A stretch of 60,160 nucleotides of DNA, the filler included, from Dimargaris cristalligena (lineage: Eukaryota), in the NCBI GenBank assembly GCA_003614675.1. It is 3 parts of 3 records of this genome, joined end to end, with 100 filler letters (N's around TTAATTAATTAA, not from the genome) between each part and the next. Parts side by side here need not be neighbours in the genome. Positions count along the whole stretch, not along the records: positions 1 to 20,050 come from ML002710.1; 2 more parts are not named here. One strand, 5' to 3'. Each line of letters opens with the position of its first letter. Position 1 is the first letter of the stretch. The position numbers and the translations under genes were made by a program. A model generated the notes under the pieces. The model searched no databases. It worked only from the letters and a program-made list of their open reading frames with translations, and had not been told where the DNA came from. This document shows, piece by piece, positions 1 to 40,207 of the stretch.

Positions 1-426
1 GTTTCCCAATCCCCCCATATACTTTACCACTAACCCCCCCCCCCCCAAACTCAGAAGATATCGCCGTTGAGTGCCTCGTGATTTTGTTAGCCTAATCATT
101 CCGCAAAATATCCGCCATACCATACCATGCCATACCATTTCCGTTCCTCTTGTTTAACTACAACGAACAGCCCCTTGCGTGCTCCCATTTATCCACAGTT
201 ATCTATTTTCTAAATGACGTGCTAATCCCAAGATCCTCTCTCACTCCCGCTACTACTTCAGATACCAATTACAGTAGTCCTGAGCGGCAGAGAGGTATGC
301 CCTAATTAAATAGTTTATTATATATATATACGTAATTCATTCTAGAAAACCGTAGTGAGGATGCTATTACTTATAGCGATGGCTCAACAACCACCCTCAT
401 AAAACCACCCCACCCGCCCTGCATGC

Positions 427-3400
427 TTATTTATCGGCCCTGAAGGATTTCCACACTTGCGGCTGCTTCGGCTCTGGGGCTTGGTTCTGAGTCTCGCGCT
501 GGTGGCGACTGCAGATACGGCGCAGGTAGTCCATGAACGCATCCCCGCTGGACTCCCGGGCGGCCCCTCCCTCCCCTGTACTACTGGCCTCCCCCGTAGT
601 GATACTGGCCCCCTTGAGATCCTCAAAGTACAAAATCTGGTTTTGCCGGAAACTCCGGTACTTCTCGGCGATTCGGGCCTGGGAGTCCTGGTCTTCTTGC
701 ATCCTAAATTCCGTAGGGGGTTGTGAATTAGAGCTCTGAGCAGTCGGGCCCGAAGTTGCGGTGTCAGCGGAGGGTTCTCCGTCGGTGCCTTGGTCATCTC
801 CGCCAAGGGCCGCCTCCAGCACAAACCGACTCACCTGAATATCATCAGGGAGGGTGATTTTCCGGCTTCCATCAATGGTTATGGCGCTCTCCGTCTGGTC
901 GTTGGGAATGGCTTCCACGTATACCACCAGCCTGTTTAGGTTCCGGATACACTCAAAGGACACCACCAGTGTCTGAGAATGACGTGGCCGGTTGGTACAA
1001 TAACAAATCATTGCAGTATAGGTGGATGTGGTTAAAGTCTACTCTAGAAATACGAAAAGGCGCGCATCGCCGGAGTTGGCTCTGGGTCCATGACGCTGTC
1101 CTTCCCGAATAACCCCCCAGTCCACCATATATCACCTCATCATAATACCCCTACCCATTGGGGGAAAAACAACACTATATTCATAATCTTACCTGAGCGG
1201 GGTACTTGGCAGTAACGGTATCGAACACCTTTTCCAGCAATTGTAGGGTCAAGAAGAAGTACTTGTCCCCGCGCCGGGTCGATCCAAATAGTACCTTATC
1301 CATCTCCTCGCGAGGGATGTACTGGAACCCAAACAGCGATTTGGTATTATGGAAGGCCACGAATACCCCATCCATATTTCCGATGCGGGCCTGGAAGTTA
1401 TACTTGAGGAATGCTGATCGCATCATGTCAAAGTATTCCCGCTCGAAGGATTCAATCAGCCCCGATGGGTATTTGATTCGGTATTCGGTGGCCGACTGGT
1501 GTTTCAAGGGAAGTTGGTATAATCGCGGGTTTGATAATTATGAAAACCCCATCAAGGTCAAAAATAAATTAATCGCAATCCCTTGCGCTAATATTCATGA
1601 TACCAGATAAAGACAATGATTTTACTATACTGAGCACATAGTCGGAATCCCAAATAAATACTGGTGGCTTACATCAAACTCATCACGGAGCAGCCGAATG
1701 GCGATGGTGGCCCGTGATTTAAGATCAAATGATTTGAGTGGCAGGCGCTTGTCGTAACAATCTAACTGGGACCGCAGCAAGAAACGATTGTACTAGATAC
1801 ATCCAAGGGATTACCGCCGGCAGTCGCATTAAAACAAGCCCCACAACTGCCATATGGTTAGTCTCGATGGAAATCAACGAATAGTATTTGGCCCTGAAAT
1901 GAAAGTGTACCTGGGGTGCTACAGCCTCACCTGGATATCGCCTCTTAAGGCAGGGGACCGCTTCATACACCGACGAAATGGGTTCGATAATTATACAGTG
2001 GGTAACCTACCGATGCGTAGCTGTACTGCTCCTCAGCCATATTGACTTTACTACTGTCCTTACTCTTCTTCAGAAGACGCTCGAAATGTGGCTGCCGGAG
2101 GGTCAGGAACCGTTCCATCGATTTACCCTATTTAAACATATACAACAACCCCCGCGCCCCCATGTATCCATGTTACACCATAAGTTCAAACCATCAACAT
2201 CGTAATACGGATTAGAATGGGCGAATAGGCCCCGTGTTCCCCTATCCTGTTTTTTCCTGCAAAACACAACAACTAAAACGGGGGTTTGGGGATTTTCGAA
2301 TGATATCCATAGGTTATCCAAATCAAATGTCAACGGGGTCCAAAGAATAAACTGGCGTAGGCCAGAGTAGGCAACTTACCAGAATCATCAGGATACTATC
2401 CTCCACATCGAAGCTTTTATCAGCGTCAATCGCATAGACGCCCTTATTATATCGTAAGTAAACCGATGCAGGTACCCGCATTCCGCGAGTGTGACTGTCA
2501 GGCTATTCCCGTATATAAGCAAAGCGTGGCCAGCCAATTAATGGGGGGAGGCAGATGATGGCCATAAAGAAATTGGGTTAATGACATGGTTTATCAAGCC
2601 CCTGCATGTACACCCCACAGACAGTCTACCGGTGTCCTATTATATGCCCTATAGCAATCGCAAGTATCAGTTAACGACAGCCCACAAGGGCAGATTGTAC
2701 TAAAAATATATACGGGGTCTACGTATATAATGGCCACTTACCAGTTTCATGAACCTTTGGGAGAGTGGGGTTATATCCAAAGGACGCCACATGGACACTA
2801 GGAAAAAAATGTGTGACAGAATGTGGGTCATGGATGAGGTTGAACCCACGTATTTACTATTGTTCTTCTTAGCCTTCGAATGAAGGGTCTATACAGGAAG
2901 TGCGATCAATTAGTTCATAGCGGGATAAGCATATATATCATCCATGGGCAGTTAGGAATCCGGCGCTTATCCAGTATAAGCAAAATTGGGCCAAACCATT
3001 CGTGCCCCATAACCAACACAATAGTATCCGTATAAACCACCTAAGCTTACCTTGTCTTTGGAAGGCTTGATAAAGGGCTGTAGCTTGTCGAAGTCAAACG
3101 CGTCGTTAGGTGGAACCTTTTGAAGCCATGGATCGAAGTTGAACACCTTCGAGCGCGAATCCTGTAGATAATGGACCCCTGGACTAAAAAGTACGCGGTC
3201 GAGATCGTGGGCTAACCGGGGCAGTTTACGGAAGTCCGGTTTCTCGAACTGCATGGTCATTGCCATCGGGTCAAGCTGAAACGTCACCGGTTCACCCAGG
3301 TTGCCGCCGCTTCGCTTTTGGATCTGCGCACCCAGATCATCTTCAAGCTCTTCGATGGCTGATAATCGAAACCAGTACAAATTACATTTCATAGTAGTTA

Positions 3401-3763
3401 ACAATACAAATGCCATATTCTAAGTTAGTATCATTCTAAACCGTCAGGTGGGGAAGAGGGGTTAACAACCCTAGCACTGTAGGGAGGCCATCAATTCGAT
3501 TACCCACTAAAGTAACCCCCCTGTTAGCGACCCGACAGGCCCTATTATCCGTACAACTTACCGGTGGTCTCGTTGGCGAATTTGAATTCGACCTCATTCC
3601 CAATGGGCTCGATCGGGCTCTCAAACTCCACGGTTTTAGCCTTGTCTGAACTCCAGCGAAGGGAGCATGCGAGGTTGTAACCAATGGGGATCCGCCGACC
3701 GGCCAGACGTGGTGTGGTGCCAAAGTAAAAGCGAGTGGACCGACCGCTGAGTAGTGCCGCCAT
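427..3763 (-). CDS. PET127: Pet127 mitochondrial RNA 5'-3' exonuclease, multi-exon
   Basis: GT-AG spliced exons read by hand include MAALLSGRSTRF (Arg/Ser-rich presequence, ATG at 3763), LPRLAHDLDRVLFSPGVHYLQDSRSKVFNFDPWL, VYAIDADKSF, GKSMERFLT, FLLRSQLDCYD..FDLKSRATIAIR and ESFEREYFDMMRSAFLKYNFQARIGNMDGVFVAFHNT. These are all Pet127 family motifs. Some exon edges and the 3' end are approximate. Confidence 0.93.
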
Positions 3764-4683
3764 GGTAGAGAGGTGGGGAATGACACAGGTTCCCTCGATC
3801 GGGGTAAGAAATGTGAAAGGGAATGGGTAATGGACTAGCAAGCAATCCACGATTTCCAAAAATAAGGTTCGAATTTTATGGAGGCACTGCCGGAGGTGAT
3901 CAATGCATGCACAATAGCCAGGTTCTAGTATTTTTTTTAAAAAAAAGTTACCCAATCGGAATTTGCTGTTTAGGTAGATCGGGTGAACTTGCTACATATT
4001 GGTGTCGCTTAAAGCCTAAAAAATGGGTATATTGGCTAGCCGACCATGCGGGTAAACCCGGAAGACTTATGAGTGTACTTAATAGGTTTTGATCAGTGAT
4101 AGACAAGCTAGTTCCGATCGTGTGGAATAGGTGTCTGTGCTAAATGCAACCGCTTAATTGAAGAGTCGGACTGATAGCAAAATTAGTTGGGTGCCCATCC
4201 CCATATCGAGTTGTACCCCACGGACCAAGCAGCAAGGTCCCAATATCCTGTTGAATACCCAACCTTTTCAACACTCCAGCCTTCCTTGTCCCTTTGTAAT
4301 TATCTATAAGCCCTTTCAATCATATAATTTTTAGTAAGGTCATTAGATATAGTATCTCACTGGTGTATAAATCGAAATCATAAATCAGTTGGACTGGATA
4401 ACGTTGACCTCGAAATTTCCCATTACCTAATTAATTGCCCGCTAACACTAGCTCGTCAATATTGGCAAACCAAACCCTTTATTCTATTACAGCCATTTCT
4501 GATACTCTTATATTAAAGTGTGGGGATACCCTTGTATTTGGAAACCTTTGAATGGGATACTCTTAGGTGGCATATAGATCGAACCGCTACCTTAAATTTC
4601 ATAGAATAAAATAGATAAATTAAGTAGAGGTGCACTTATATTTAAACTGATGGGTTGGAGTCATAGGAGTTATGCAAAGTGCC

Positions 4684-7600
4684 TTAAGATGGAGGTTGTT
4701 CTAAAAACCCGGAGCTAACCATGTAACTCAAATAACGATTCATCAAATGAGACATTGGCAGTCGATGTAGCCCATTGGGCCGACAGAGAACCTGAGTATG
4801 GCTTGCATTGATGGTGGGGAAATTCATCATCTCAGGTAAGTTATCCAAGACAAACATTAGTAATGAATACAGGGCGTTATCATCTGGCTTCTGAGCAGCG
4901 GCCTTTAAGTGTTTACACCAAATGGGGTAGTCAATGATTTCAAGGGTAAACCCATATACACGGAGCTGGTCAAAAACATCATTGTAGCTGAAAGGGGCCG
5001 GTGCATTCACATGAAAGGTACCAGTTGTAAGGGCCTTTGGTTCAGATACAATCCTGACTAGTATTTCAGCCACATAGTCCACCGGACACATGTTTACTGT
5101 ACAATCCATAATGGGGGCCTTGCCTAGCTGGATAGAGCCCTTGACGAGGCGCCATAGGAAATCATCAGTGTTGACTACTCCAGACTCACTAGCCCCCACA
5201 ATGAATCCAGGCCGAATAATAGTGCAGGGATATCCTCGGATATGGGCTTCTTGTATGAGTTTATCAGCCACCCATTTACTTTGATCATACCCAGCGGAAA
5301 TATTGAACCGACTTCTTTCTAGATCATCTGACTCCGGGATTCCAGTATCCAATATGGATTGGGTTAGGTTGTCCTTGGTAAATACAGATAGAGTTGATAT
5401 ATAATGTAATGACTTAATATGATGGGTAGTGGCAAGTTCAAGGGCTGCTAAGGTTCCCAAGACGTTGGGCCCCCGGAATTTCTCATAAGGGTACATCCAG
5501 TGGACTAAGGCCCCATTATGGATGATCACATCTACTACTCGGGTTAGGGACACCCATTCCGCCTCTGCAATGCCTAAATGGGGTTGAGCTAAGTCACCCA
5601 CAATAGCTCGGACTTGCTGGCTACCATAGCCAATAGCCTGGTTTCGATTAGGTTCAGTATTGATGCTATCAGTGGTCTCAGATTCTATAATGTCCCACTT
5701 GCTTTGCCAAACTAGGCGGCCCATACAACTTGTCTTGATCCTCTCAAATGCCTGCTTCGAGGACTGGGCCCTAACTAGACAATGTACAGTGGCTGATGGG
5801 TAGTGGCTTAACAAAGTTGCCAGAATAAAGGTCCCTAGGAAGCCGGTAGCCCCAGTCAGAAAGAATACAGGAGCATCTCCTGGCCATGCTTCATCAGGGA
5901 ATATGGTTAACCAATTATCTGAGTGGTCCTTTAGCAAAGGTGGGAGCTGATGAACAAGGTCATCAAAATCCATTGAGTATGTAGTTGGGTGATTATCAAA
6001 GTTCAAGTCAAGGGTACTACTGGTATTAGGGCTATTCTGGAACGACTCTTGTGCAATAGCTAATTGCTCTGGCATCACCAGAGTAGGGGTACTTGGAATA
6101 GTTTGCATGTTTGTTTGGATTAACTGGTCGATTTCCAAGGCCATACCATAGATTGTTGGTTGGCGGAAAACCAGATTATGGGGGATACTGGCCCCAAAAA
6201 TATTTTGAACTTGAATGGTCATTCGTGTGGCTAGAATGGAATGACCACCTAGGTTGAAGAAATTGCTATGTAGTGGGATCACTGAGTCTTCACCCAGTAC
6301 CTGTTGCCAAATTTTGCAAAGGGAGGCCTGGGTAGGACTGTAGTTTGCTATAAGATTAGGCTCATCAGTGGCAGTGCCATTATCTCCAGTAACTAAGCCA
6401 TCAGGTCCAAGTTTTTTAGTAATTAGAACTTCTTGATGCCACGGGAGGGCCGACTTATCCACTTTTTGATTAGAGTTCATTGGTAGGTGGGTCAGAAGGA
6501 TGAAAATACTGGGGACACTGTATCTAGGCAGTACTTGCTTCAGATGTTCTTTGATTTTGGATCCAAGTCCAACGAAATCACCTCCAAGACACATGTCATC
6601 ACTTATGATTACAGGTATACCAGAGACCATATTGCCTGGAACCTGGAATGGACCAATAAACTCTGGTACAATATATGATACTAAAATATCATCACTACTG
6701 TTATTTTTCTGTAGTACTGTTACACAGGCCCGAATCTGGGGATAGTGTAAGATATTACTATCAATTTCATCCAGTTCAACCCGGAACCCTCGGATTTTGA
6801 TTTGGTTGTCTATACGGCCCAGGCAATCAACTTGGCCAGTAGGTAGCCACCGACCAAGATCACCTGTATAGTATAGCTTGCCCTGGCCGGTAAAGGGGTT
6901 ATCAAAAAACTTTTCAGCATTGAGATTTGGTTGGGTAATGTAGCCCCGACTGACACCAATACCACCAATGTAGATCTTACCAACTGCCCCAATTGGTACT
7001 AGGTGGAGGTGGCTATCCAAAATATAGCATTCATAATTAGCAATTGGGCGGCCAATAGTAACTGGACCAGTGGAAGGTACCAGAGAACAGAGACTGATAA
7101 TGGTAGTCTCAGTAGGTCCATAGACATTATAGAGTGAAACAAAGGGGGTCCACTTTGCTGCAAGTTCTGAGGAAAGGCGCTCAGCACCACACACTATTGC
7201 TTTTAGCCGAGGACAGTGATGGGGTTCAATAAGTGAAAGGGTAGATGCAGTAAAGACAGCACACTCGACTACTGGTAAGACTGATAAAAACGTATCCTCA
7301 TAAAAAACCAGTATTGCACCGTTGACAATAGTAGAAAGTGCAGCAAAGAAATAGGCATCAAACCCAGAAGGCACACCACTTAAAACTCTTTGACCTGGCT
7401 TCCAAAGTTCTTTAAAAGAATTGTTGCTAATGTTATTGGCCAAGCTATTGTGCTGGACCATAACTCCCTTTGGCAAACCCGTGGTCCCAGATGTGAAAAT
7501 AATATAGGCTAAGTCAATTGGTTGAATAGGATATACTGAACTATAGTTGATAGGTTGGTGAGTGCCAATAGCAGAGTCAGTTAGAGATATTGCACTTGGC

Positions 7601-10600
7601 CATTCTGTAGTAGATTTCGTTGCATTCACAATATGTGAGCATTGGGCAGTTTCCATAATGTATTTCTGTCGACTATAGGGGAGTTTACTGTCTACTGGGA
7701 CATAAGTAGCCCCAACTGACCAAATAGCTAGCATAGCCAGGATTGTATGTGGGTGGTCAGCCACAATGACTGCCACTCGATCTCCCGGATTTATAGGAAG
7801 CTGTTGTAGGTAACTAGCTAATCCCTGGATATTGTGGGCTATTTCTGTGTAAGTCTGTGTTTGGCCAGCAAACTCTGTTGCAATATGGTTGGGATATTGC
7901 TGAACAGCATTGAAAAACATGTCTACAACATTCAAATTAGGGTTTTTTAGGATTGTAGAGTTGACTGGGCCACGTGAGAATTCCTTTAGGATGAATTGGG
8001 CCTCAGCTGGACACACTAGTGGTGCAGTCAGGATTGACTGCCCTAAAGCTAATACTGACTTTATGTAAGAGTAGAAATTATGTAGTAGACGTTCAGCAGT
8101 TTGGTATTTGAAAATATCAGGATTATACCAGAGTTGTAGTTGGGCTACGGGATATTGGTAATTAATAACTAGCTGTAAATCATATGGGAAAAGAGTTTGG
8201 GGTTGTTTGGGATGAACAGCCTGGACACCAGGGGGATAGGAATAGGAAATTGAGGATATTAATAGCACTCCAACTCGGGCTATACTGGTAAATCTAGAAA
8301 GAGGGCGAAGTCCTAATTTAGCACCCAGAACGCCATTAGCTGGGGTAATATGAGTTGCTGATACCTGACATTGTTGGAAAAGAACATTGACTAACTCTAA
8401 AATATTATCTGGTAAGTTACCAGTAAATCGGACTGGGTATGAGGTATTTGTCAAATTGGTAGATGAGGTTAGTGACTTATTAAGGTCATCTATGTGAGCT
8501 TCAAAATTGACTACAAGGTCCTCTTGGCCTGTAAGACGGAGAAGGAAAGCCACAAAAGTAGATAACCAAATAATGCTTTTACAAACTGATTTATGAGTAG
8601 CTAAATCAGATACCATCATATCCAGTTTACTTTCAAGCTTGGTTTCCACCACAGAGCATTGGAAAGCAGTAGTATTTGGTTGGGAATCATCTGTTGGAAG
8701 AGCTAACTTAGTTGTGGCATTGCATAAAAGTGAGCACCAATAATTGGTATCAGTCTTAGAGGGTAGATTCTTGTGGATATAAGGTTTGACTGGCAGTGGG
8801 TCAACAGTATCTAATTTATGGCCTTGAATACCCTGTAAGAATAGTTGAGTAAGATACTTGAAAAACCCACTATCTCCTGCAATTTCATGGACACAGAAAT
8901 TGATAGCTGACTTAATTTCCCCTTCAGATGTTTGAGATACCTGGTAGAGGGTAACTTGAAGAAGGATACCTTGTTGTAGGTTAAGGTGGATTTGCTCTGA
9001 GTTGAAATCCAAGTCAATATTCTCCAGAGGCCCAGGGATTACTTGTTCAATAACTTTGAGTTGCACTTCAGGGAGAATGTGGCAGGCAAGGATACCATTG
9101 TGGGAAGTATAAGAGCAATGCAGTGCCTCAAATTGGGATACTAGTTGATCAACAGCCATTTGGACCTTTGAAATGGAAATTGGTTCTACTAATGTGAGTG
9201 TACAGTGGTGATAGAAGTCTCTTTCAGCATCTGTGAATCTGCTGAGAGACCATATATATTGCTGATAGTTGGTTACAGGAGGGCTTGAAATGTGAGGTAA
9301 AAATGTATACTGGTTATTTATAATGATATGTTCCTGTATTTGGTTAATCTTGCTATTATCCACTAATTTAGTGATAACCAGAGCTAGGGTTTTAAGGTTG
9401 TTGTGGTTAACTAAATCACATATGGCTACCTCAATGCCATATTTCTGATATATACAAAACTTGAGCTTTTCAAACTGGCCTAGGGTGAGCCCTGAGATTG
9501 ACTCATGAATCTGGGTTATTGAAGGATTATTTAGATTTTGGGATAGGTACATCTCATTAACTAAGACAATTAACCACCATTCAGTTTCTGATAGTACCTT
9601 TGGGTATTGAAGGGAAAGGCAAGTGAGGTAGGCCTGGACAAATTTACAGATATTATATCCAGCCTGGTCAGAATAATTAGCCACATGAGGGAAACTCTTG
9701 GTAGATATAAGAGCATTTGGAATAAGCACTTGGGGAACAATGGGTGGAACTACTGTGGCCTGTAGCTTGGCTAATTCTTCCTTAGATGTATAGTCAACTA
9801 CTACTACTAATTTTTCATTGGATAATACCAGAGCCTGGGGATGGATAGCCCCAACTTGAAGGAGTACTTGTTCCAGTATGCCAAGATGCACTTGCTGGCC
9901 TTGGAAATTCACCCGCTGGGATTCAGAGCCCAAAATGTGAATCTGGTTGTCCGAATTATAGTATCCAAGTCCAAGGCCTCCAACCTTTTGAGGCAGACTA
10001 AAATTACAAGTATTGGTAAATACTAGGTATCCAAGAACCCCAGGAGGGCAGGGATGGCCCTGGTAATCTAAAACTACTAATGGAATTCCCCCTAAAGAAG
10101 AGTCTGCAGTAGGAAAAGTAAAAGTTGCTAGTTGACTACTAGTTACAGAGCAGAACCCATCAAATACAGATCCATTATAAACTAGGTAGAGGCAGGATGT
10201 ATTAATTTGAGGGCTGATACTAGATGTCAATAGTTTGGCTAAATTGACTAGTAATAGCTGGTCATTGTGTTGGGGTTCTTGTGTGAGCAAATTTGATGAT
10301 GTGGCATAGCAGTTTACTGGATTGGCATTAGGTAGAGTATACTCCCCTGCTGGCTTGATAGTCACATTATATAGTAGACATGAGAGAATAAGCCAGCTAA
10401 CCTCTGGGCTTCCAATGTCTAATAATGGATCAAAGGAACACTCATGTCTACTATTGAAATATGACTTGGCTTGAATAACAGCATGTGTGATTTGAGTACA
10501 GGTAATTGCAGTTATAGTTGGACCAGTTAAGCTCCAGTCAGAAATAAATTGTAGGCTGATATTAGGGTTGTTATACTGTGAATTGTAAGGTTGAATAGGT

Positions 10601-13600
10601 TCTAAATTAGTGCTAGGGCTATTGGTATTCCAGGATGGTATCTTAATTATATTGGTATTATGTGGGAGGTATGCCAAGTAAGTATTTGAAAAGAAAGCTG
10701 GGAGCCACACAGTCTGGGGTTCAATAGTCTCTAAAGATGTGTTAATTTGTTTCAGAGATCTAGTGTATGGGTGGATTGTTAACAGGACATCTAGTTTGAT
10801 GGCAGCTACTAAGCAGACAGAAAGCTGACTAATATCATTAACAAAGGCTAATATAGTAAGAGGGCAAGCTATTGTGGAATTAGCAGTGGAATACACAAGG
10901 GAATCAACTAGGTGGTTGAGTTGTCCAACTGATAGTACATGTTCATCAGACTGGAGGACAGGGTGGCCTGGATGCTTATTAGTAATACATTCCCAAATTT
11001 GATATAGTGGAAGAGAAGCCAAGGTAGATGTTGGATTGCAGATAGTTTGCCTGGGATTCATAGTTGGTGGATAAACTGCTGGGATAGTAAGTGTGAGCTG
11101 ATCAATAGTTGTTTGAGGATCACATATAAGTATTTGCTCAAGAATAACTTGGACCATATCCACTAGTTGGGCTATTGAGGTCTCTGAATATACAGCAGTA
11201 CTGTAAGATACCCTAACTTGGATAGATGAGGGCTGGTCTACAAAATTGATAGCCAGTGGATACTGTGTAAGCTCATGAATATATATATCTGATAGGGTTA
11301 AGTCAGAAAATTGGTTAGAAGTAAGGTCAGGAAAGTTTTCAAAGCCTAGGAGTGTATGGAATAGGGGTCCTGACTGGGCTAACCCATTCCATTGGATTAT
11401 ATCAGTGAGTTGAGAGTGCTCAAAAGGAATCATATTCACTTGGTCCTTATGAAGAGACTGTAGCCATATCCTAATATGTGATTTATCTAGGTGAACTTGG
11501 CATGGCACTGTATTGGTACAAGGTCCAATCACTTGGTCCATAGCTAGGATATTCAAATTACGACCTGATAGAATCACACCAAAAGTCACATCATCTTGGC
11601 TGAGTAGACGGCCTAAGACTAAGGCATAAGCAGCCCGGAATAGGGTTGCTATTGATATACCTAGGGTTTGAGTTGTTTGGAGTAGTTGGGCTTTGGAAAT
11701 ATTGAGTGGTGTTGAATATGATGCATGACCTGGTGAACCAATATAATCTGGGTACAGTAAGGGGGCTGGTGTAGCTTTAGCATTGTGTAGATAGTCAGTC
11801 CAAAATGCCTGAGCTAATGTGGGATCTGATTGGCATATATATCTAACAACTGCTGTAAAGCTGGTAGGGGGTGGGGATACAGCCAATTTGGGATTGTGGT
11901 AGGCTACCATCCACTGCTGGAGGAGTAGGGGCAATGACCAGCCATCCATTAATGAGTGGTGGATAGTAATAATAATATCATAAACCTGGCTATCAGCAGT
12001 GGGGAACACAAAATTGCGGACCATATGTTCTTGGAGGGTGAATCCCTGCTGTCGATTCTCAATAAAAAATGCTTCAAGGGAATCAAGAGGCTGAACAGCA
12101 ATAGTCCAGGAAGTGGGTAAAGAGGATAGCACCACTTGGAGGAACCCCTGGGATAGAGTACTGGGTGATTCAATGAATACTGTGCGCAGGGGAGAGTGCT
12201 GGTTGGCTACAGAAGCCCAGGCCTGAATCAGTTGATCACAGTCAAGTTGGCCAGTTAGCTTCATGGCCATTTGGACAAGGTACATTGATGGGTCTGAAGA
12301 TAAGTTCATGAGAAGGCCGCCCTGGACTGCAATACAGGGAAATATATCTTCAACCTGGGCGAGGGGAATGCCTCTTTGGTGTATTTGGGCCAAGACAGTC
12401 TGGAACCCAGTGTCAGAGAGAGATAAGTGTGGGAAGTCATACTTGGTAAGCAAAGGCTCAGAAATTATATTTCCAGACTGTACACCCAGGCTAGTAAGTT
12501 CACCCAAATTCTGGTGCCATCTGGCCATAATCCTAGAAATAATATCCTGGTGGTATACCCGGGGGTTATACTCTGTAATTAACCGGAGAGAGTCACCAAC
12601 TATTGCAGACATGGGGTTAAGATCAAAAATAATGTAATCCTGAGGTGAAAAATCATGCAGCCCAAAGGAATCAGACCATTCAATGGAAAGAGGATCACTA
12701 CCCTGGTGAGTACTCGAGTTACTAAACTGGCCAAAGTAGTTGAATTGGACATCCATTTTTGAAGATGTCTTGGCCATTAATTTATGTTTCTCATCAGCTT
12801 GGACACCTGGCATATATTTGATTATTGAGTAGGGAAAGCCTTTACCGGGGATTTTCTGCAAGGCCTCCTTAGTATATTGTAATAGTTCTAAGAATGATTG
12901 ACCTGATTGGATCTGGAGTACTAATGGATAGAGGGAAGTAAACCAACCTACAGTGCGTGTAATATTTTGATCAGCAGCCCAAGGTTCCCGTCCATGGCCC
13001 TCCATACAAAAGGATATCTGATCAATCCCAATGGTAGTAGAAAAGGCCTGGGCAAATGTGGCCAGTAGTAAATCTTGAGGGGTAACTCGCCATTGGGGAG
13101 CTAATTGGAAAAACAAAATACTGGTAGACTTTGAATCAAAATCCAAAGACACAGAGAGGCGGGCTACAGGGTAATCCTCAATACTGATCTCTGGTGGAGG
13201 TAGTAGAGAGTAGATATCGGGGATTGGGTGGTTGGGATCCATCTGTGTAGGCCAAATGTCTGCGGAGAGAGTACTAGAATAATCAGCCAGTTGGGTAGCC
13301 CAGGTTTGAAAAGACATTGTCTTTGGTGGAAGGGGTTTACCAAGCAATAGTGAATTTAAATCCTCAATGAGTATCCGCCAGGAAACCAAGTCCACCAGAA
13401 TATGGTGAATAGTGAAGAAGAGTTGGGTATTGAGTGGTTCAGCTGGGTTGTGGATAAGTGCCGTAGCGACGACTGGGCCAGTAGTAAGGTTGAGGCTTGA
13501 TTGGATCTGTAAAATAAAGGCTGAATAGTCATCAGGGTCCACAGTTTTCTCTAGTACCAGAAGGTCAGCACTTGTAGCCACCTCCGTAGGAATTGTTTGA

Positions 13601-16380
13601 GTCCAACTCTGCCCAGTTTCACTGAGTTGGAACCTTGCTCGTAGAATATCATGATGGTTAAGCAAGGCAACAAGAGCATCAGTGAGAGTGAAATGTGATA
13701 GTTGAAAGCGGTGGCTAACATTGAATAAAAATGACTGATTGAAGTGGCTAGGATTTTTAAAAGGAAGACCGGCAAACCAATGCTGAATGGGAGTGAGGCT
13801 CACATCCCCTTTGGCTTGGACTTGAGAATCTAAGCTATTATCAAGCATTGTGTTAGTTTCTTGCTGAAGGTACTGGGCTTGTTGACGTAGTCTAGGATAT
13901 TGGTAGACTAGAGGGACCGTAAACTGGTAGCCCAGCTGTTGGAACCTGGACACAAGTAGAATAGCTGAGATTGAATCACCGCCGATTTTGAAGAAATGGG
14001 CAGTAGCATTAATTTGACTTGCGTCCTTCTGCAAGACTTGGGCCCAGGCCTGCCGCAGGCCTCGCTCAATACCTGAGAGCGGTTGTTCCTCAAAATCTCT
14101 TGAGATCGGCTGGTTTAAAAGGTGGTCGATGGATGGGAGAGCCTTGCGGTCTAACTTGCCATTGGTAGTTAACTGAAATTCTGCCACTGGGATAATTATT
14201 TGAGGGACCATTTTCTTAGACAGGCGACTGGAAAAATGTTTTAAAAGAGCGGCTTGGTCTAGCTCCGCTGGACTGGTATATAGAACAAGGGTTTCCTGGA
14301 CTATCTTTGCCACAGAGTTGTTCAGTCCAGTGAAACTACCTGCCACATGCTCAATTTCCTCGAGCTCAATGCGATACCCATGCAACTTAACTTGATTGTC
14401 AATGCGACCTAGGAATTCAATTGTACCATTAGGAAGCCACCGAACACTATCACCGGACCGGTATATTTTTCCGGGGCCATAGGGATTGTCGATAAATTTG
14501 GCTTGCGTTAGTTTGGGTAGGTTTTGGTATCCACGGGCAAGCCCAATTCCCCCAATGAGCAACTCGCCCGGAACACCCACCGGCACCAACCGAAGCTTGT
14601 CGTTAACTACTAAATTGGTCACATTTGTAAGAGGGAGGCCGGTTGAAATATCGGCATCGGGGGTAATAACAGCCATGTTACTTGAGACAGTGGCTTCGGT
14701 TGGGCCATATCCATTGATTAGGGTACAATGCCTTGCCCATTGCGTACATAATTCGGCTGAGATGGGCTCTCCTGCAACCATTATAGTCTTCAGATTTAGA
14801 TAATCAGCAGGGTTCAGCCGAGACAGGAATGATGGGATTATTATTGCCGTATCAACACTCTGTAAGGACTCAACCAAATTTTCGGTGGGAACTACCACAG
14901 TGCCCCCAGTACAAAGGCCATGCAGCAGTTCCAGTACCAATCCATCAAATGCTACTGACATCATTAATAACGACCGGTGGCTGTTACGATACACTTCTTC
15001 AATCGTTGGATTCGTGATAAGGTTGGTTACGCTTTGTTGCTCAATCATTACACCCTTGGGGCGACCGGTGGTGCCGGAAGTGTAAACAATATAGGCAAGA
15101 TCGTGGTGGGCCGATGGGTGTGGTTGGAAATCAGATGGGTCCGAATCGGGTGGTGATAGAGTGAAAGGGTCTGTCACCAACACGGGAAAATGTGACTGGT
15201 GAGGTATATTACTACGGGTCGATTCAGTGGCAAGTAGTAATGACGCGCCACTATCGTCTAGGATGAACTGGATTCGGCCACTTGGATATTCCGGGTCTAT
15301 AGGTACATACGCTGCGCCGGATTTAAGTACCCCAAGTAAGGCTACGATGTAAGTGAATGACTTGGGAATGAATAGGGCAAACCGGGTCTCGGGCTGGGCA
15401 CCGTATTGCGTAACAAGGACTCGAGCAAGCTCGGAACTACAATTGTCCAGCTGGCGGTAGGTCCACTCATTGGGACCATGAGTGACGGCGATATTATGGG
15501 GCACTATTTTAGCCCGGCCACTGAAAATACAGTGCACAGGCTGATTCACGCACTGGATTGGGACATTCATGCGGGAAAAGGTCATTAGACGGCCTCGCTC
15601 CTGTTCGCTGACCCAGGGGACATCACGGATCAACATTGGCAGTCGACTGAGATCCTTCGTGGCCCACGCCCGAACCACCGCACTGAGAATCGTGTCAAAT
15701 TGGCTCGCAAACTCCTCTACGGCAGAGGCCCGATACGCACTGCGGGAATATGCAATATCCAGTTTAGCAAAGCCACCCACCACATTAAAGTCAATCAGCA
15801 GTCTAACCCCTACCGTGGTCAAAAGGGTAGGTAAAAACCACCCGGTGTTGTTGACGGTGGAATGGATAAAATTGCCAGGTACATTGCCAGATGACTCATT
15901 GGGTACAGTGGATTCATCACAGCGCAGAATTACCTCGGGAGGCGGCGGTGTTTCGGCGATGGTATCGGTAGGGTTAACACCAATTCCATTGAAGTCAATT
16001 GTTGGCCCGTAACACCCATCGCAGGAGCTAATCAACGAAGTGACCTGCACCTCAGGATCCACATTCAACACCGCCCAGGCCAACGGGGCATTAACGAGGG
16101 AAGTATCGCCGAGGGGTCCAGCGGTATAGCCAAATGCCACCTCCGATTGGTTGTAATACCGGCTTAGTAAAATGGCCAGAGTGGCCACGGCCAAATTGTT
16201 AAGGCCATATTCTGAACCAGGTTGAATTTCTTCCGATGAAAGCCGGTGACGATGGATTTCAATGCCCTGTTGGACTCGGTTGGGCTTGCCTAAAGGCAAC
16301 TTCACCTTGGGATAGCTCCCAGCGGGCACATAAGAGATTGGAGCCACGTCATTGGAGGTGAGGGTGGAATACGGTGCCAT
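4684..16380 (-). CDS. Intronless nonribosomal peptide synthetase, 3898 aa: partial C - A - T - E - C - degenerate (A-T-C) - A - T - thioester reductase (R)
   Basis: A1 has YTSGTTGRPKGV, NGYGPTE and NGKLDRK; T1 has FFKIGGDSI. E has TPIQHWF, HHILVDLVSW, EGHGRE, RTVGWFTSLYP and FNYFGQF; C has HHSLMDGWS. The last A has FTSGTTGLPKGV and NVYGPTE, then T FFNLGGHSIL. R has TGATGFLG, HNGALVHW and YDQSK. Confidence 0.95.
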   Translation of the reverse strand: MAPYSTLTSNDVAPISYVPAGSYPKVKLPLGKPNRVQQGIEIHRHRLSSEEIQPGSEYGLNNLAVATLAILLSRYYNQSEVAFGYTAGPLGDTSLVNAPLAWAVLNVDPEVQVTSLISSCDGCYGPTIDFNGIGVNPTDTIAETPPPPEVILRCDESTVPNESSGNVPGNFIHSTVNNTGWFLPTLLTTVGVRLLIDFNVVGGFAKLDIAYSRSAYRASAVEEFASQFDTILSAVVRAWATKDLSRLPMLIRDVPWVSEQERGRLMTFSRMNVPIQCVNQPVHCIFSGRAKIVPHNIAVTHGPNEWTYRQLDNCSSELARVLVTQYGAQPETRFALFIPKSFTYIVALLGVLKSGAAYVPIDPEYPSGRIQFILDDSGASLLLATESTRSNIPHQSHFPVLVTDPFTLSPPDSDPSDFQPHPSAHHDLAYIVYTSGTTGRPKGVMIEQQSVTNLITNPTIEEVYRNSHRSLLMMSVAFDGLVLELLHGLCTGGTVVVPTENLVESLQSVDTAIIIPSFLSRLNPADYLNLKTIMVAGEPISAELCTQWARHCTLINGYGPTEATVSSNMAVITPDADISTGLPLTNVTNLVVNDKLRLVPVGVPGELLIGGIGLARGYQNLPKLTQAKFIDNPYGPGKIYRSGDSVRWLPNGTIEFLGRIDNQVKLHGYRIELEEIEHVAGSFTGLNNSVAKIVQETLVLYTSPAELDQAALLKHFSSRLSKKMVPQIIIPVAEFQLTTNGKLDRKALPSIDHLLNQPISRDFEEQPLSGIERGLRQAWAQVLQKDASQINATAHFFKIGGDSISAILLVSRFQQLGYQFTVPLVYQYPRLRQQAQYLQQETNTMLDNSLDSQVQAKGDVSLTPIQHWFAGLPFKNPSHFNQSFLFNVSHRFQLSHFTLTDALVALLNHHDILRARFQLSETGQSWTQTIPTEVATSADLLVLEKTVDPDDYSAFILQIQSSLNLTTGPVVATALIHNPAEPLNTQLFFTIHHILVDLVSWRILIEDLNSLLLGKPLPPKTMSFQTWATQLADYSSTLSADIWPTQMDPNHPIPDIYSLLPPPEISIEDYPVARLSVSLDFDSKSTSILFFQLAPQWRVTPQDLLLATFAQAFSTTIGIDQISFCMEGHGREPWAADQNITRTVGWFTSLYPLVLQIQSGQSFLELLQYTKEALQKIPGKGFPYSIIKYMPGVQADEKHKLMAKTSSKMDVQFNYFGQFSNSSTHQGSDPLSIEWSDSFGLHDFSPQDYIIFDLNPMSAIVGDSLRLITEYNPRVYHQDIISRIMARWHQNLGELTSLGVQSGNIISEPLLTKYDFPHLSLSDTGFQTVLAQIHQRGIPLAQVEDIFPCIAVQGGLLMNLSSDPSMYLVQMAMKLTGQLDCDQLIQAWASVANQHSPLRTVFIESPSTLSQGFLQVVLSSLPTSWTIAVQPLDSLEAFFIENRQQGFTLQEHMVRNFVFPTADSQVYDIIITIHHSLMDGWSLPLLLQQWMVAYHNPKLAVSPPPTSFTAVVRYICQSDPTLAQAFWTDYLHNAKATPAPLLYPDYIGSPGHASYSTPLNISKAQLLQTTQTLGISIATLFRAAYALVLGRLLSQDDVTFGVILSGRNLNILAMDQVIGPCTNTVPCQVHLDKSHIRIWLQSLHKDQVNMIPFEHSQLTDIIQWNGLAQSGPLFHTLLGFENFPDLTSNQFSDLTLSDIYIHELTQYPLAINFVDQPSSIQVRVSYSTAVYSETSIAQLVDMVQVILEQILICDPQTTIDQLTLTIPAVYPPTMNPRQTICNPTSTLASLPLYQIWECITNKHPGHPVLQSDEHVLSVGQLNHLVDSLVYSTANSTIACPLTILAFVNDISQLSVCLVAAIKLDVLLTIHPYTRSLKQINTSLETIEPQTVWLPAFFSNTYLAYLPHNTNIIKIPSWNTNSPSTNLEPIQPYNSQYNNPNISLQFISDWSLTGPTITAITCTQITHAVIQAKSYFNSRHECSFDPLLDIGSPEVSWLILSCLLYNVTIKPAGEYTLPNANPVNCYATSSNLLTQEPQHNDQLLLVNLAKLLTSSISPQINTSCLYLVYNGSVFDGFCSVTSSQLATFTFPTADSSLGGIPLVVLDYQGHPCPPGVLGYLVFTNTCNFSLPQKVGGLGLGYYNSDNQIHILGSESQRVNFQGQQVHLGILEQVLLQVGAIHPQALVLSNEKLVVVVDYTSKEELAKLQATVVPPIVPQVLIPNALISTKSFPHVANYSDQAGYNICKFVQAYLTCLSLQYPKVLSETEWWLIVLVNEMYLSQNLNNPSITQIHESISGLTLGQFEKLKFCIYQKYGIEVAICDLVNHNNLKTLALVITKLVDNSKINQIQEHIIINNQYTFLPHISSPPVTNYQQYIWSLSRFTDAERDFYHHCTLTLVEPISISKVQMAVDQLVSQFEALHCSYTSHNGILACHILPEVQLKVIEQVIPGPLENIDLDFNSEQIHLNLQQGILLQVTLYQVSQTSEGEIKSAINFCVHEIAGDSGFFKYLTQLFLQGIQGHKLDTVDPLPVKPYIHKNLPSKTDTNYWCSLLCNATTKLALPTDDSQPNTTAFQCSVVETKLESKLDMMVSDLATHKSVCKSIIWLSTFVAFLLRLTGQEDLVVNFEAHIDDLNKSLTSSTNLTNTSYPVRFTGNLPDNILELVNVLFQQCQVSATHITPANGVLGAKLGLRPLSRFTSIARVGVLLISSISYSYPPGVQAVHPKQPQTLFPYDLQLVINYQYPVAQLQLWYNPDIFKYQTAERLLHNFYSYIKSVLALGQSILTAPLVCPAEAQFILKEFSRGPVNSTILKNPNLNVVDMFFNAVQQYPNHIATEFAGQTQTYTEIAHNIQGLASYLQQLPINPGDRVAVIVADHPHTILAMLAIWSVGATYVPVDSKLPYSRQKYIMETAQCSHIVNATKSTTEWPSAISLTDSAIGTHQPINYSSVYPIQPIDLAYIIFTSGTTGLPKGVMVQHNSLANNISNNSFKELWKPGQRVLSGVPSGFDAYFFAALSTIVNGAILVFYEDTFLSVLPVVECAVFTASTLSLIEPHHCPRLKAIVCGAERLSSELAAKWTPFVSLYNVYGPTETTIISLCSLVPSTGPVTIGRPIANYECYILDSHLHLVPIGAVGKIYIGGIGVSRGYITQPNLNAEKFFDNPFTGQGKLYYTGDLGRWLPTGQVDCLGRIDNQIKIRGFRVELDEIDSNILHYPQIRACVTVLQKNNSSDDILVSYIVPEFIGPFQVPGNMVSGIPVIISDDMCLGGDFVGLGSKIKEHLKQVLPRYSVPSIFILLTHLPMNSNQKVDKSALPWHQEVLITKKLGPDGLVTGDNGTATDEPNLIANYSPTQASLCKIWQQVLGEDSVIPLHSNFFNLGGHSILATRMTIQVQNIFGASIPHNLVFRQPTIYGMALEIDQLIQTNMQTIPSTPTLVMPEQLAIAQESFQNSPNTSSTLDLNFDNHPTTYSMDFDDLVHQLPPLLKDHSDNWLTIFPDEAWPGDAPVFFLTGATGFLGTFILATLLSHYPSATVHCLVRAQSSKQAFERIKTSCMGRLVWQSKWDIIESETTDSINTEPNRNQAIGYGSQQVRAIVGDLAQPHLGIAEAEWVSLTRVVDVIIHNGALVHWMYPYEKFRGPNVLGTLAALELATTHHIKSLHYISTLSVFTKDNLTQSILDTGIPESDDLERSRFNISAGYDQSKWVADKLIQEAHIRGYPCTIIRPGFIVGASESGVVNTDDFLWRLVKGSIQLGKAPIMDCTVNMCPVDYVAEILVRIVSEPKALTTGTFHVNAPAPFSYNDVFDQLRVYGFTLEIIDYPIWCKHLKAAAQKPDDNALYSLLMFVLDNLPEMMNFPTINASHTQVLCRPNGLHRLPMSHLMNRYLSYMVSSGFLEQPPS

Positions 16381-20150: not shown

Positions 20151-20282
20151 AAAACTTTATACTGTTGATTTTATTAATATTTTCATTTGAGTGACAAACC
20201 AGTTCGCCTGGAGAAGCCACCCTGCCCTTTTGATATATTTTTGTTGTTCATTTTAGTGGCCTGACACCACCACTCTGTGACA
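20151..20282. mobile_element. Probable LTR terminus of a second retroelement inserted into pol
   Basis: RT homology stops abruptly after ..AHLPWAA. The adjoining AT-richer sequence begins TGTCACAG on the minus strand (plus strand ..CTGTGACA ending at 20282), which is a typical LTR terminus. It is truncated by the contig end. Confidence 0.55.
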
Positions 20283-21826
20283 GCGGCCCAGGGAAGATGT
20301 GCAGAGATGGCGTTGACTCCACCAGTCAGTCGCTGTATTTCCTTTACAGTCCTAGGCATCGGTAACTGCTGGAGGTCTGCAATACGGTGGTCTGGAATGG
20401 TCCAGGTGTTCCCTTGTGTCCATCGGTAGCCAAGGATTTCCATGTTAGAGGTACCAGCAAATTCGCTCTTAGACATATTTATGGTAAGGCCCCAGGTGGC
20501 TAGCCCTCTTATAAGTATGCCAATATCTTGGATGTGGTTATTGATATTGCCGCTAGTACTCTTTAGGTAGATATTATCAATGTACCCTAGGAGGCGGCCA
20601 TGAAGACTGGGGATATCATTGAATACATGGAGGAGGAGGGCATGTGCAATAGCGGGGCTTTGGCTGTTACCCTGTACTAAGCGGGTTGCTCGTACTCGGC
20701 CATTGGGTCCTCCATCGAAAGTCCAAAAATCTCGAACTTCTGGGGCAAGCCTGATCTGGGTAAAGTAAGAAGCCAGGTCTATACTAGTGATAATCTTAGC
20801 ATCGTTGATAAATGCACGGACTTCATGGAGTCTAGGGAGCTGCATCCCAAGTGAGTGCATATTAATAGTGCTCCCTTGGCTATCATCAAGAATGACTTGC
20901 CGGGCATCCGTATTTGGCTTGGGTAAGCTGTATACTGGAAGGTTAGCATGGGCAAACCCTGGCTCATCAACTCCATATTGGAGGCGAGTTTTGATGTACT
21001 TCGCCATGAATTCCCGATCGGCCTGACTCCGGGGGGCCTGGGGTATGTACAGAAGTTTTGCATCATGCCGTAGTGGTGGTACCACTGGGGTGAGTAAGCA
21101 GGGTGGTGGACAACTTGGTGGGTATTCTCGGAGGGCTGATGCTCCAGCCATTAGTTCATCCAGTAGCCGTTTCTGAGTAATTTGGCATGTCAATTGTTCC
21201 ACTAGACGGGACTGTACACTTTGACGAGTAGGTAAAGGGTACTGGTCATTTGCCTTCCTGAACTCTTGGTCGGCTATAGGGTCAATCCGCCTGAAGGTTT
21301 CTGCCGGTAGGCCCCTTAGCTCCAGGGTTTCTCGCTGGGTGATTCTGGGCTGCTCTGGGTGGATCACTGGGGGGCAGGCTGGTGGAGCGGCCATTAGCTC
21401 AGGTGAGAGGCGAAGGTCAAGATCTAGGCTATCTAAGTCCTGGCGGCCAATCAGGGCATCAATTTCGGTGTTAGCCTCAATCACCGTAAATTTAATCCAT
21501 CGCTTTCTGGGGGACTCTGATGTGGCAAATCGTGCTCGGGTAGTGCCCAGGGTTGGGGCATAGTGAGGCCCTCCAAAGGCTCGCAAGTGGGGTCTGAGCT
21601 GCTGGTCAATCTTGAGATGTAAGCGGGTGGCAGTATCTCGGGTGATTACACTGGTGGCTGCTCCTTGATCGGCTGCTGCTTTAATCGGAACTCCACCTAA
21701 GGTGGCATTATGAAGTAATCTCCAGTGGGGGGTTATGTCTTCGGTGGTAGGGGGGTCAATACTAGGTTTATTGGAGGTGATAGCAGCTAGTATGAGGGGA
21801 GTCCTTACCACCTCTAGGCTTTTCCC
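20283..21826 (-). CDS. pol: Ty3/gypsy-type pol (aspartic protease + reverse transcriptase), -1 frame relative to gag, 3'-truncated
   Basis: Protease motifs AAADQGAATSVI and DALIGRQDL; RT motifs LPRLHEV, SIDLASYFTQI, RLVQGNSQSPA, YIDN, INMSKSEF, ILGY and PRTVKEIQRLTG. Protease directly followed by RT is the gypsy order. No RNase H or integrase is present. Confidence 0.88.
21759..21826 (-). promoter_or_regulatory. -1 programmed ribosomal frameshift signal (G GGA AAA + H-type pseudoknot)
   Basis: Minus strand reads ccG GGA AAA gcc TAG. Stem 1 is GAGGTGGTA/TATCACCTC and stem 2 is ATACTAG/CTAGTAT. Confidence 0.8.
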
Positions 21827-22722
21827 GGCTTATTGTTGACTAACTGCTGGAGGCGTCCAATTTCTGCCTTCAACTCAGCTGTCTCCTTAGCCTGGCGATC
21901 CTTTCGACGCCGAGTTTTACCACGATTGGTATTATTGGCAGTAGGCACTCCACCCTGGATAGCCGCGAGTACTGCAGCCACTAGGGACTCGGTGGATGGT
22001 AACCCAGTATCTCTGTTTCCCTTAGATAATTGATCGCGGAGTACCTGGGCAGACATACTATAACTGGATACAGTTTGAGTGGTGGCCTGGTTGGCTTGAC
22101 CATGGCCCGGGGCCGTTCGGAGGGCAGCTTGACGTGCCTGACTGGCCAATACTGCCTTAGCAATGGCCGTAAAACGTTTGGTCATATCACCAGCAGTATA
22201 ATTGGTAAATTCCCAGAGGTCATTAGGGGCCTGTACCAGGTGGGAATGAAACTCGGCTAATAGGGCCTTAGTAACCTGCGTACACCAATGACTAGTGCCT
22301 CCTAGTTGCCAGGCTGCGTCGGTAGCAATGGTGCAGGCCACATGGATGTTCTTCCCCTTGAAGAGGGTTCCTGCGTGGAGTGCGGCATCATAGTGTTCTG
22401 CCCATTGGGAGGCTGGGTAGGTGGTCACCATGAAAGGCTCAAAGTTCTCTTGGGTATCTTTGCCGGCCTTGATAATTAAATCGCGGATGTCATCATGGAG
22501 TAGGGCGATTGTCAGGCGGAATTGGGCACCTTCACTCATTTGAGGATAGTAGTCGTGAACGGTGGCAAGGAGAGACTGTTTCCAGGATTCCCAGGTAGGG
22601 CCGGGTGGTTTGCCAGTGAAGGGCTTGATATTCTTGAGGAGAGTATCAAGGGCGCCAGAGGGAAGACCATGTTGAGGGATAAGAGGGACGTCAGCTGGCT
22701 TGTTCTGGGAGGGCGGATCCAT
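21814..22722 (-). CDS. gag: Retrotransposon gag-like protein (302 aa)
   Basis: The ORF lies immediately upstream of pol, with IKPFTGK..WESW near the N-terminus and a basic C-terminus (KTRRRKDRQ). The call is mainly positional. Confidence 0.75.
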   Translation of the reverse strand: MDPPSQNKPADVPLIPQHGLPSGALDTLLKNIKPFTGKPPGPTWESWKQSLLATVHDYYPQMSEGAQFRLTIALLHDDIRDLIIKAGKDTQENFEPFMVTTYPASQWAEHYDAALHAGTLFKGKNIHVACTIATDAAWQLGGTSHWCTQVTKALLAEFHSHLVQAPNDLWEFTNYTAGDMTKRFTAIAKAVLASQARQAALRTAPGHGQANQATTQTVSSYSMSAQVLRDQLSKGNRDTGLPSTESLVAAVLAAIQGGVPTANNTNRGKTRRRKDRQAKETAELKAEIGRLQQLVNNKPGKA

Positions 22723-40107: not shown

Positions 40108-40207
40108 NNNNNNNNNNNNNNNNNNNNNNNNNNNNNNNNNNNNNNNNNNNNTTAATTAATTAANNNNNNNNNNNNNNNNNNNNNNNNNNNNNNNNNNNNN
40201 NNNNNNN
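40108..40207. other. Artificial contig linker (N44-TTAATTAATTAA-N44)
   Basis: Same structure as 20051-20150. Confidence 0.99.

Follow-up and report, generated by a model that had tools for sequence, protein, structure and literature searches.

The gene described here encodes a nonribosomal peptide synthetase (NRPS) of the fungus Dimargaris cristalligena and lies in a 60,160-nucleotide stretch of assembly GCA_003614675.1 (the window), made of three parts joined end to end that need not be neighbours in the genome. Sequence comparisons indicate that the terminal module of this NRPS is very probably an evolutionary chimera, in which an NRPS-type adenylation (A) core is followed from the A8 motif onwards by the Asub segment, carrier (T) domain and thioester reductase (R) domain of the lysine-biosynthesis enzyme Lys2; this degree of confidence applies to the chimeric origin. 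The junction is shared by three diverged D. cristalligena paralogues, and Lys2-derived tails are also present on NRPSs of two other groups of fungi.

The gene occupies window positions 4684..16380 on the minus strand as a single open frame of 3898 codons plus stop, without interruption. Pfam, NCBIfam and piecewise scans give the architecture (C remnant)-A1-T1-E-C2-(decayed A2-T2)-C3*-A3core, continued by Lys2-type Asub-T3-R, where C and E are condensation and epimerisation domains and C3* is a weak condensation domain (Table 1). The adenylation signal (TIGR01733) totals 709 bits, of which A3 alone contributes 335 against a cut-off of 317, and the R domain scores 314 with TIGR01746 (cut-off 213) and 225-230 bits with PF07993. 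The core motifs of A1, T1, E, C2, A3, T3 and R are all intact; the carrier serine or HHxxxD motif is present in T1, T3, E and C2 and absent from T2 (LGQF) and C3 (HExxxD). A public D. cristalligena protein, P0002 (partial, 675 aa), is identical at 673 of 675 positions to aa 3122-3858 (window 4807-7017), with alignment gaps where 62 residues stand in frame in the window, and the predicted introns in the P0002 model are probably spurious.

The tail of the protein (aa 3199-3898) was searched alone against proteins of 615-1959 aa. The first matches are D. cristalligena fragments, namely P0002 (the same gene) and P0003, P0004 and P0005 (50-54% identity), followed by the Lys2 proteins of Dimargaritales (Dispira, Tieghemiomyces, D. 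cristalligena P0008 and D. xerosporica; 42-46%) and then by other fungal Lys2 (34-42%); none of the best 120 matches is an ordinary NRPS by name, the named entries being fungal Lys2 or D. cristalligena paralogues and the rest unnamed. The same order (D. cristalligena paralogues, Dimargaritales Lys2, other fungal Lys2) is obtained by local BLAST for Asub, T and R taken singly. The R domain shares 56% identity with that of the D. cristalligena Lys2 (P0008), and T3 shares 53-54% with the Lys2 T domains of Dispira simplex and D. cristalligena (P0008, 53%) and 50% with that of D. xerosporica. Tail phylogenies comprise quick trees of 56 and 37 rows and a careful tree of 37 rows (supports given as UFBoot/SH-aLRT). 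In the careful tree the tails of the four D. cristalligena genes group together (100/100), with the species' own Lys2 as sister (100/98); the two together lie within the Lys2 of Dimargaritales (100/99), where the quick trees also place the tail, and they are split from nine bacterial NRPS R tails (100/100). Constraining the tail family to the nine bacterial tails changes the log-likelihood by -26.8 and is rejected by the approximately unbiased (AU) test (p-AU 0.015).

Against the Lys2 model TIGR03443 the tail gives an E value of 1e-146. The A-T-R piece scores 597.4 bits, covering profile positions 677-1360 only and not reaching the cut-off of 1030.1, and the control P0008, a bona fide Lys2, scores 1672.7 bits over positions 1-1362. 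The terminal module is thus Lys2-type by descent in its Asub, T and R, and has neither a Lys2-type core nor the full-length score of a Lys2. Given the non-Lys2 core, it is unlikely that this NRPS activates and reduces alpha-aminoadipate.

The A3 core has a different set of relatives. A search with aa 2780-3198 in the same length class returns Dimargaris NRPSs first and bacterial NRPSs next, with no Lys2 among the best 120 matches. By local BLAST the core shares 51% identity with P0123, an NRPS of D. cristalligena, 42% with P0122 of D. verticillata, 36% with a further Dimargaris NRPS and 33-36% with bacterial NRPSs; Lys2 proteins score 65-101 bits and rank 244-365 of 374. Identity to Lys2 cores is 23-25% over near full length, and the three closest Lys2 proteins (P0006-P0008) give a local match of 32-34% over ~97 residues at the C-terminal end of the core. 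An A-core tree of 60 rows and 462 columns groups the 17 Lys2 cores in a clade of their own, without the query (SH-aLRT 100, branch length 2.61). The query pairs with P0123 (94), and the Dimargaris clade to which both belong includes module 1 and is set among bacterial-type A domains. Placing the query core with Lys2 changes the log-likelihood by -56.0 and is rejected (p-AU 0.0008). Three Lys2-specific insertions are missing both from the A3 core and from the upstream parts of P0003-P0005. A preliminary description of this DNA had likened the last A core to module 1 of the same NRPS; the likeness is there (34% identity, 219 bits), but P0123 and P0122 are closer. Its view that the NRPS body is bacterial in style agrees with the position of the A cores among bacterial NRPS A domains and with the E domain, whose best solved relatives are those of GrsA and TycA.

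The change from one type to the other is visible in alignments. Upstream of A8 the query and P0003-P0005 have the NRPS-type motifs YGPTE, GGIGVS.GY, GDLGRWLP and CLGR, and downstream of it they have the Lys2-type EID, P.IRA.VT, LVSYIVP and LP.YS.PS, a ~30-aa insertion, and then T and R. The insertion (about aa 3244-3273, nt 6562-6651) is common to Lys2 and absent from NRPS-type Asub. Because the diagnostic sites switch from NRPS-type, the last of which is L3187, to Lys2-type, the first of which is D3207, the crossover is placed within GRIDNQIKIRGFRVELDEI (aa 3188-3206, nt 6763-6819), an A8 motif that the NRPS and Lys2 families have in common. In the alignment P0003, P0004 and P0005 have the junction in the identical place. 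The preliminary description had proposed just such a join of an NRPS core to a Lys2 tail at the A8 hinge, and all of the motifs that it quoted are found in their places in the 3898-aa frame (Table 1). It had named three observations that would speak against a chimera, and none of them was made: the tail falls outside the ordinary NRPS R domains, a breakpoint does lie near nt 6800, and sequence data from several runs do not point to an assembly chimera.

For the last of these we draw on Logan contigs. Contigs of four DNA runs (X5, X2, X4 and X1) from two studies bridge the junction interval, through which the frame is open, and the contig from X5 differs from the window at 7 bases over 4400-11641 and so represents independent data. 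Since contigs of four runs and two studies cross it, the junction is not an assembly artefact. Further upstream in the gene, at window 11300-15400, summed contig depth is several-fold above that at 4400-11300, the Logan contigs break and variants are clustered, which suggests that near-identical paralogous copies of the A1/E/C2 region are present elsewhere in the genome. Plus-strand GC skew is strong (0.19-0.27) and G+C content low (0.40-0.45) at window 8000-14000 in the middle of the NRPS, and the most AT-rich part of this region is the decayed module.

Module 2 has lost the features of a working module. Its segment at aa 1751-2300 has no Pfam family match in the Pfam scan, its A8 motif is decayed and reads LGSESQRVNFQGQQVHL, the A10 lysine is lost, and the carrier serine is lost through a change of GGDS to LGQF near aa 2297; the decayed stretch nevertheless runs through 595 codons with zero stop codons. 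In the following C3* domain the motif reads VHEIAGD (aa 2497-2503, about nt 8872-8892), so that the catalytic second histidine of HHxxxD is replaced by glutamate. At the other end of the protein, the C-domain remnant may mean that the gene starts in a truncated C domain or that exons further upstream were overlooked.

Lys2-derived tails are also found in other early-diverging fungi. The tail search among long proteins, together with a representative search, identifies two further groups, comprising a 4345-aa NRPS of Calcarisporiella thermophila (P0249) and NRPSs of 2723-4618 aa in Mortierellaceae (P0394-P0399). The representative-search ranking mixes single-domain and multi-stretch scores and was used as a source of sequences only. 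In the tail trees the P0249 tail is sister to Calcarisporiella's own Lys2 (100/99), and the Mortierellaceae NRPS tails (three of the six found were included) are sister to the Mortierella alpina Lys2, inside the Lys2 of Mortierellaceae (99/96, 100/100). In both groups the resident Lys2 is 8-34% identical to the NRPS upstream and 56-84% identical to it in T-R, and the terminal A core of P0249 falls among NRPS cores in the A-core tree. The junctions are of three types. In Dimargaris the change lies in A8. P0249 has two Asub segments in tandem, a complete NRPS-type A domain (aa 3191-3652) being followed within ~20 residues by a Lys2-type Asub-T-R (aa 3672-4341); the second Asub starts just past A8, and this tail is 56% identical to the species' Lys2 from residue 762. 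In the Dimargaris and Calcarisporiella NRPSs the stretches taken from Lys2 begin at points only a few residues apart. In Mortierellaceae the Asub is NRPS-type and near-identity to Lys2 begins in the A-T linker, reaching up to 84% in the T-domain window; the tail takes up the C-terminal ~700 aa. Three junctions and three lineage-specific donors argue for independent captures. Judged from these alignments and trees, Lys2 was probably a repeated donor of chain-release units to bacterial-type NRPSs in early-diverging fungi, with three grafts from the recipient's own lineage at three points. To our knowledge Lys2 is the one A-T-R enzyme carried by nearly every fungus, and early-diverging fungi may have no other resident enzyme from which a reductive release unit could come.

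Several other explanations of the terminal module can be considered. One is that there is no chimera and that the entire terminal A-T-R came from Lys2, with a core that diverged fast. The BLAST alignment to the D. cristalligena Lys2 does begin at aa 3130, ~58 residues before A8, and the best TIGR03443 stretch of the whole-protein scan began at aa 3128; the overlap at aa 3130-3187, however, consists of the A6-A7 motifs, which are conserved across all A domains. With a core that shares 51% identity with a D. cristalligena NRPS as against 23-25% with Lys2, that lacks the three Lys2-specific insertions, and that is left out of the Lys2-core clade and rejected from it by the AU test, this explanation is extremely improbable. 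Alternatively, the tail could be an NRPS reductase of the ordinary kind that resembles Lys2 through the common ancestry of Lys2 and NRPS R domains. R-terminated NRPSs reach 31-40% identity in the R domain, and in the representative search long NRPSs and Lys2 representatives reach similar total scores, although multi-module scores sum several stretches and are thereby inflated. The tail, however, carries the Lys2-only Asub insertion and lies inside the Lys2 of one order rather than beside Lys2 overall, with the bacterial alternative rejected at p 0.015, and we regard this origin as very improbable. As for an artefact of assembly or gene modelling, in which an NRPS gene has been wrongly joined to a copy of LYS2, it could be noted that the public model P0002 is partial and has 62 residues taken out as predicted introns, and that the NRPS genes of D. 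cristalligena are mostly on short contigs, according to the available part of Ahrendt et al. (2018, PMC6784888). Set against this are the contigs of four runs and two studies that cross the junction, including one that departs from the window at 7 bases, the open frame, the identical junction in three diverged paralogues, and the mere 45-56% identity of the tail to real Lys2, which means that the tail is not LYS2 itself; the chance of such an artefact is practically negligible.

Two further explanations concern the history and the fate of the gene. It is conceivable that a single old chimera has been kept LYS2-like by repeated gene conversion, in which case the place of the tails in the trees would reflect homogenisation and not when, or how often, captures took place. 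In the A-core tree the terminal core of the Calcarisporiella NRPS is placed next to the Dimargaris clade with weak support (87), a hint that the NRPS bodies are related, and the D. cristalligena tail family has long branches (0.39 plus 0.3-0.36) and is yet sister to the Lys2 of one species. One ancestral chimera does not, however, predict three different junctions, and at just 45-56% identity between tail and Lys2 any conversion was not recent, which leaves this history improbable. The gene could also be a decaying relic without a product. Its module-2 A-T is invisible to Pfam and has lost the A10 lysine and carrier serine, C3 has no catalytic histidine, the N-terminus keeps just a C-domain remnant, and 8 of the 12 listed strain differences alter the protein. 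Even so, selection is needed to keep a frame of 11.7 kb open at about 43% G+C, the motifs of the seven remaining domains, from A1 to R, are intact, and the absence of stops from the decayed stretch suggests that A3-T3-R must be translated joined to the upstream part. A relic is unlikely on this balance.

A number of points weigh against the interpretation of the terminal module as a working chimera with a sharp junction in A8. The AU test of the tail (p 0.015) is just moderately strong, and its groups were fixed after the first tree had been seen, yet they match the comparison with ordinary NRPS R domains named beforehand in the preliminary description. In a breakpoint scan by broad consensus (log-odds, 32 Lys2 against 26 NRPS sequences) the log-odds are near zero at aa 3190-3239, with a soft single-breakpoint optimum at aa 3229-3245, and the crossover could lie up to about 40 residues downstream of A8; placing it more sharply depends on the insertion and on residues specific to the lineage. 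The paralogues P0003-P0005 are fragments, with ~70 residues visible upstream of the junction. The apparently dead module 2 and the HExxxD of C3 would break normal assembly-line logic, and among the 12 listed strain differences that fall in the coding sequence only 4 are synonymous, which gives no sign of strong purifying selection and is too few to interpret.

The comparisons show the following origin of the chimeric module. A bacterial-type, E-domain NRPS of the Dimargaris lineage retained its own adenylation core, and a duplicate of the lineage's own Lys2 gave the Asub, the carrier and the NADPH-dependent thioester reductase, from inside A8 on. Because four D. cristalligena genes share the junction, the graft is taken as a single event within Dimargaritales that later spread through gene duplication. 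A mode of action can be proposed on this basis. The NRPS-type core would select and adenylate an amino acid other than alpha-aminoadipate, and the Lys2-type Asub would deliver it to the Lys2-type T domain, with Asub-T-R acting as a co-adapted unit whose native interfaces moved together. As in Lys2, the R domain would then use NADPH to reduce the thioester and set an aldehyde free. Since 595 codons of dead sequence contain no stop, A3-T3-R is probably needed in cis, and since module 2 is decayed and C3 has no catalytic histidine, the likeliest line runs from A1-T1-E-C2 to T3. C2 might thus join the D-aminoacyl group on T1 to the aminoacyl group on T3, and a dipeptide aldehyde that can cyclise might be released; alternatively, A3-T3-R alone may act as an amino-acid reductase. 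A peptide aldehyde or alcohol as the product is much less certain than the chimeric origin.

Reductase-terminated NRPSs and recombination at A-domain motifs are both already known. Release of the chain by a terminal thioester reductase, as predicted here, occurs in AusA (aureusimine; A-T-C-A-T-R) and MxcG (myxochelin), and the NCBIfam models for these two are among the best partial matches of the NRPS, at scores well below their equivalog cut-offs (847 against 2500 for AusA, NF047350, and 742 against 2300 for MxcG). A line with two active modules ending in R would presumably work like AusA. Unlike AusA and MxcG, the NRPS has an R domain from Lys2 and not from the bacterial NRPS R clade, and an E domain, a dead module and C3* stand between its two active A domains. 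Lys2 itself is a conserved single-copy A-T-R enzyme (Bushley and Turgeon 2010; this and the following papers are cited from their available parts), whose reductive chemistry, reduction of a thioester to an aldehyde with NADPH, is cited in the same source and is presumably shared by the NRPS tail. The NRPS tail derives its Asub with the insertion, T and R from Lys2 (TIGR03443; P0008), and differs in that it follows a core of another type, lacks the N-terminal Lys2 region and ends a multimodular NRPS.

In bacterial NRPSs Asub stays with T, and T-E-C swaps extend from A8 to A1 of the next module (Baunach et al. 2021, PMC8097286). The junction in A8 and the retention of the donor's Asub-T interface are alike in the Dimargaris gene, whereas the donor is a eukaryotic primary-metabolism enzyme and not an NRPS module, and the cargo is a release unit, Asub-T-R. 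D. cristalligena has 27 NRPS genes, mostly on short contigs, in two lineage-specific expansions (Ahrendt et al. 2018, PMC6784888), or by another count 21 NRPS and 7 NRPS-like genes (PMC6784888; Tabima et al. 2020, PMC7466969); paralogues with a common module order are noted in the expansion in these two papers, whose analyses, in the parts available, concern A domains only. The gene in the window belongs to this lineage-specific expansion. Domain swaps among the fungal adenylate-forming reductases (A-T-R, NRPS-like) are mentioned by Koczyk et al. (2021, PMC8070225); these monomodular enzymes share the A-T-R logic but stand alone, whereas the Lys2 tail described here is attached to a multimodular NRPS that has C and E domains. 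In full-text searches of the literature available in part, as distinct from supplementary architecture tables, we found no description of Lys2-derived tails on multimodular NRPSs. That a release unit is recruited from a housekeeping enzyme of amino-acid biosynthesis encoded in the same genome seems to be undescribed.

A working A domain of this kind would need parts of two distant enzymes, with cores only 23-25% identical, to function across a crossover in the Acore/Asub hinge. If it is active, the hinge tolerates very distant partners as long as Asub and T are transferred along with the domain downstream of them, and such tolerance would bear directly on NRPS engineering. If repeated capture is true, the three junctions would constitute a natural map of permissive fusion sites for a reductive off-loading unit, and a primary-metabolism gene would be seen to feed innovation in secondary metabolism. 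Repeated captures would suggest a general route by which early-diverging fungi turn acquired bacterial-type NRPSs into aldehyde-releasing lines, and point to candidate peptide-aldehyde or pyrazinone-type products in a mycoparasite.

Table 1. Domains, motifs and junction-bridging contigs of the D. cristalligena NRPS gene (window coordinates; aa, residues of the 3898-aa frame).
Feature	Window position	Residues (aa)	Strand	Remarks
NRPS N-terminus	15571-16380	1-270	-	C-domain remnant: last ~35 profile positions, 17 bits
A1 adenylation domain	14131..15513	290-750	-	SGTTG, YGPTE, GRIDNQVKLHG, NGKLDRKALP all intact
T1 carrier domain	13867..14061	774-838	-	Carrier Ser within FFKIGGDSIS
E (epimerisation) domain	12490..13809	858-1297	-	HHILVD motif
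C2 condensation domain	11131..12351	1344-1750	-	HHSLMDGW intact
Decayed module-2 A-T	9346..11130	1751-2345	-	Weak likeness to A-domain end and T
C3* weak condensation domain	8041..9303	~2360-2780	-	21.8 and 39.7 bits
A3 core, NRPS-type	6820..8013	2790-3187	-	YGPTE, GGIGVSRGY, GDLGRWLP, CLGR present
Junction interval within A8 motif GRIDNQIKIRGFRVELDEI	6763..6819	3188-3206	-	
Lys2-type Asub	6442..6762	3207-3313	-	Insertion and A10 Lys
T3 carrier domain, Lys2-type	6139..6321	3354-3414	-	Carrier Ser present
R thioester reductase domain	4702..5862	3507-3893	-	GATGFLG (NAD(P)H site) at aa 3510; Y-x-x-x-K in GYDQSKW
Motif GRIDNQIKIRG	6787-6819	3188-3198	-	
Motif RVELDEIDSNILHY		3200-3213		
Further quoted motifs, Asub		3275-3291 and 3302-3313		
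Further quoted motif, T3		3374-3387		
Further quoted motifs, R region		3619-3632 and 3737-3748		
Motif GYDQSKWVA		3697-3705		
Motif DNALYSLL		3834-3841		
X5 record 25 and X2 record 9	4400-11641			Bridging contigs
X4 record 19	5380-11641			Bridging contig
X1 record 3	5869-9142			Bridging contig

Long open reading frames (ORFs) are sparse elsewhere in the window, as expected for an intron-bearing eukaryote. Pfam scans of 10 neighbouring ORFs, limited to long uninterrupted ORFs in this intron-bearing genome, reveal no tailoring enzymes or transporter; they gave a retroelement fragment, a RING protein, a piece of methylmalonyl-CoA mutase, a BRR2 N-terminus, a PhoD-like phosphatase and a Myb-like protein. 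The retroelement fragment (20183-22722, minus strand) lies ~4 kb from the start of the NRPS in the window; it consists of one ORF carrying reverse transcriptase and aspartyl protease domains and, directly after this, a 302-aa ORF without a family. At 39020-41461 the methylmalonyl-CoA mutase ORF piece (plus strand, 597 bits) adjoins an ORF with BRR2 plug and PWI domains (minus strand); methylmalonyl-CoA mutase and the splicing helicase BRR2 are ordinary housekeeping genes.

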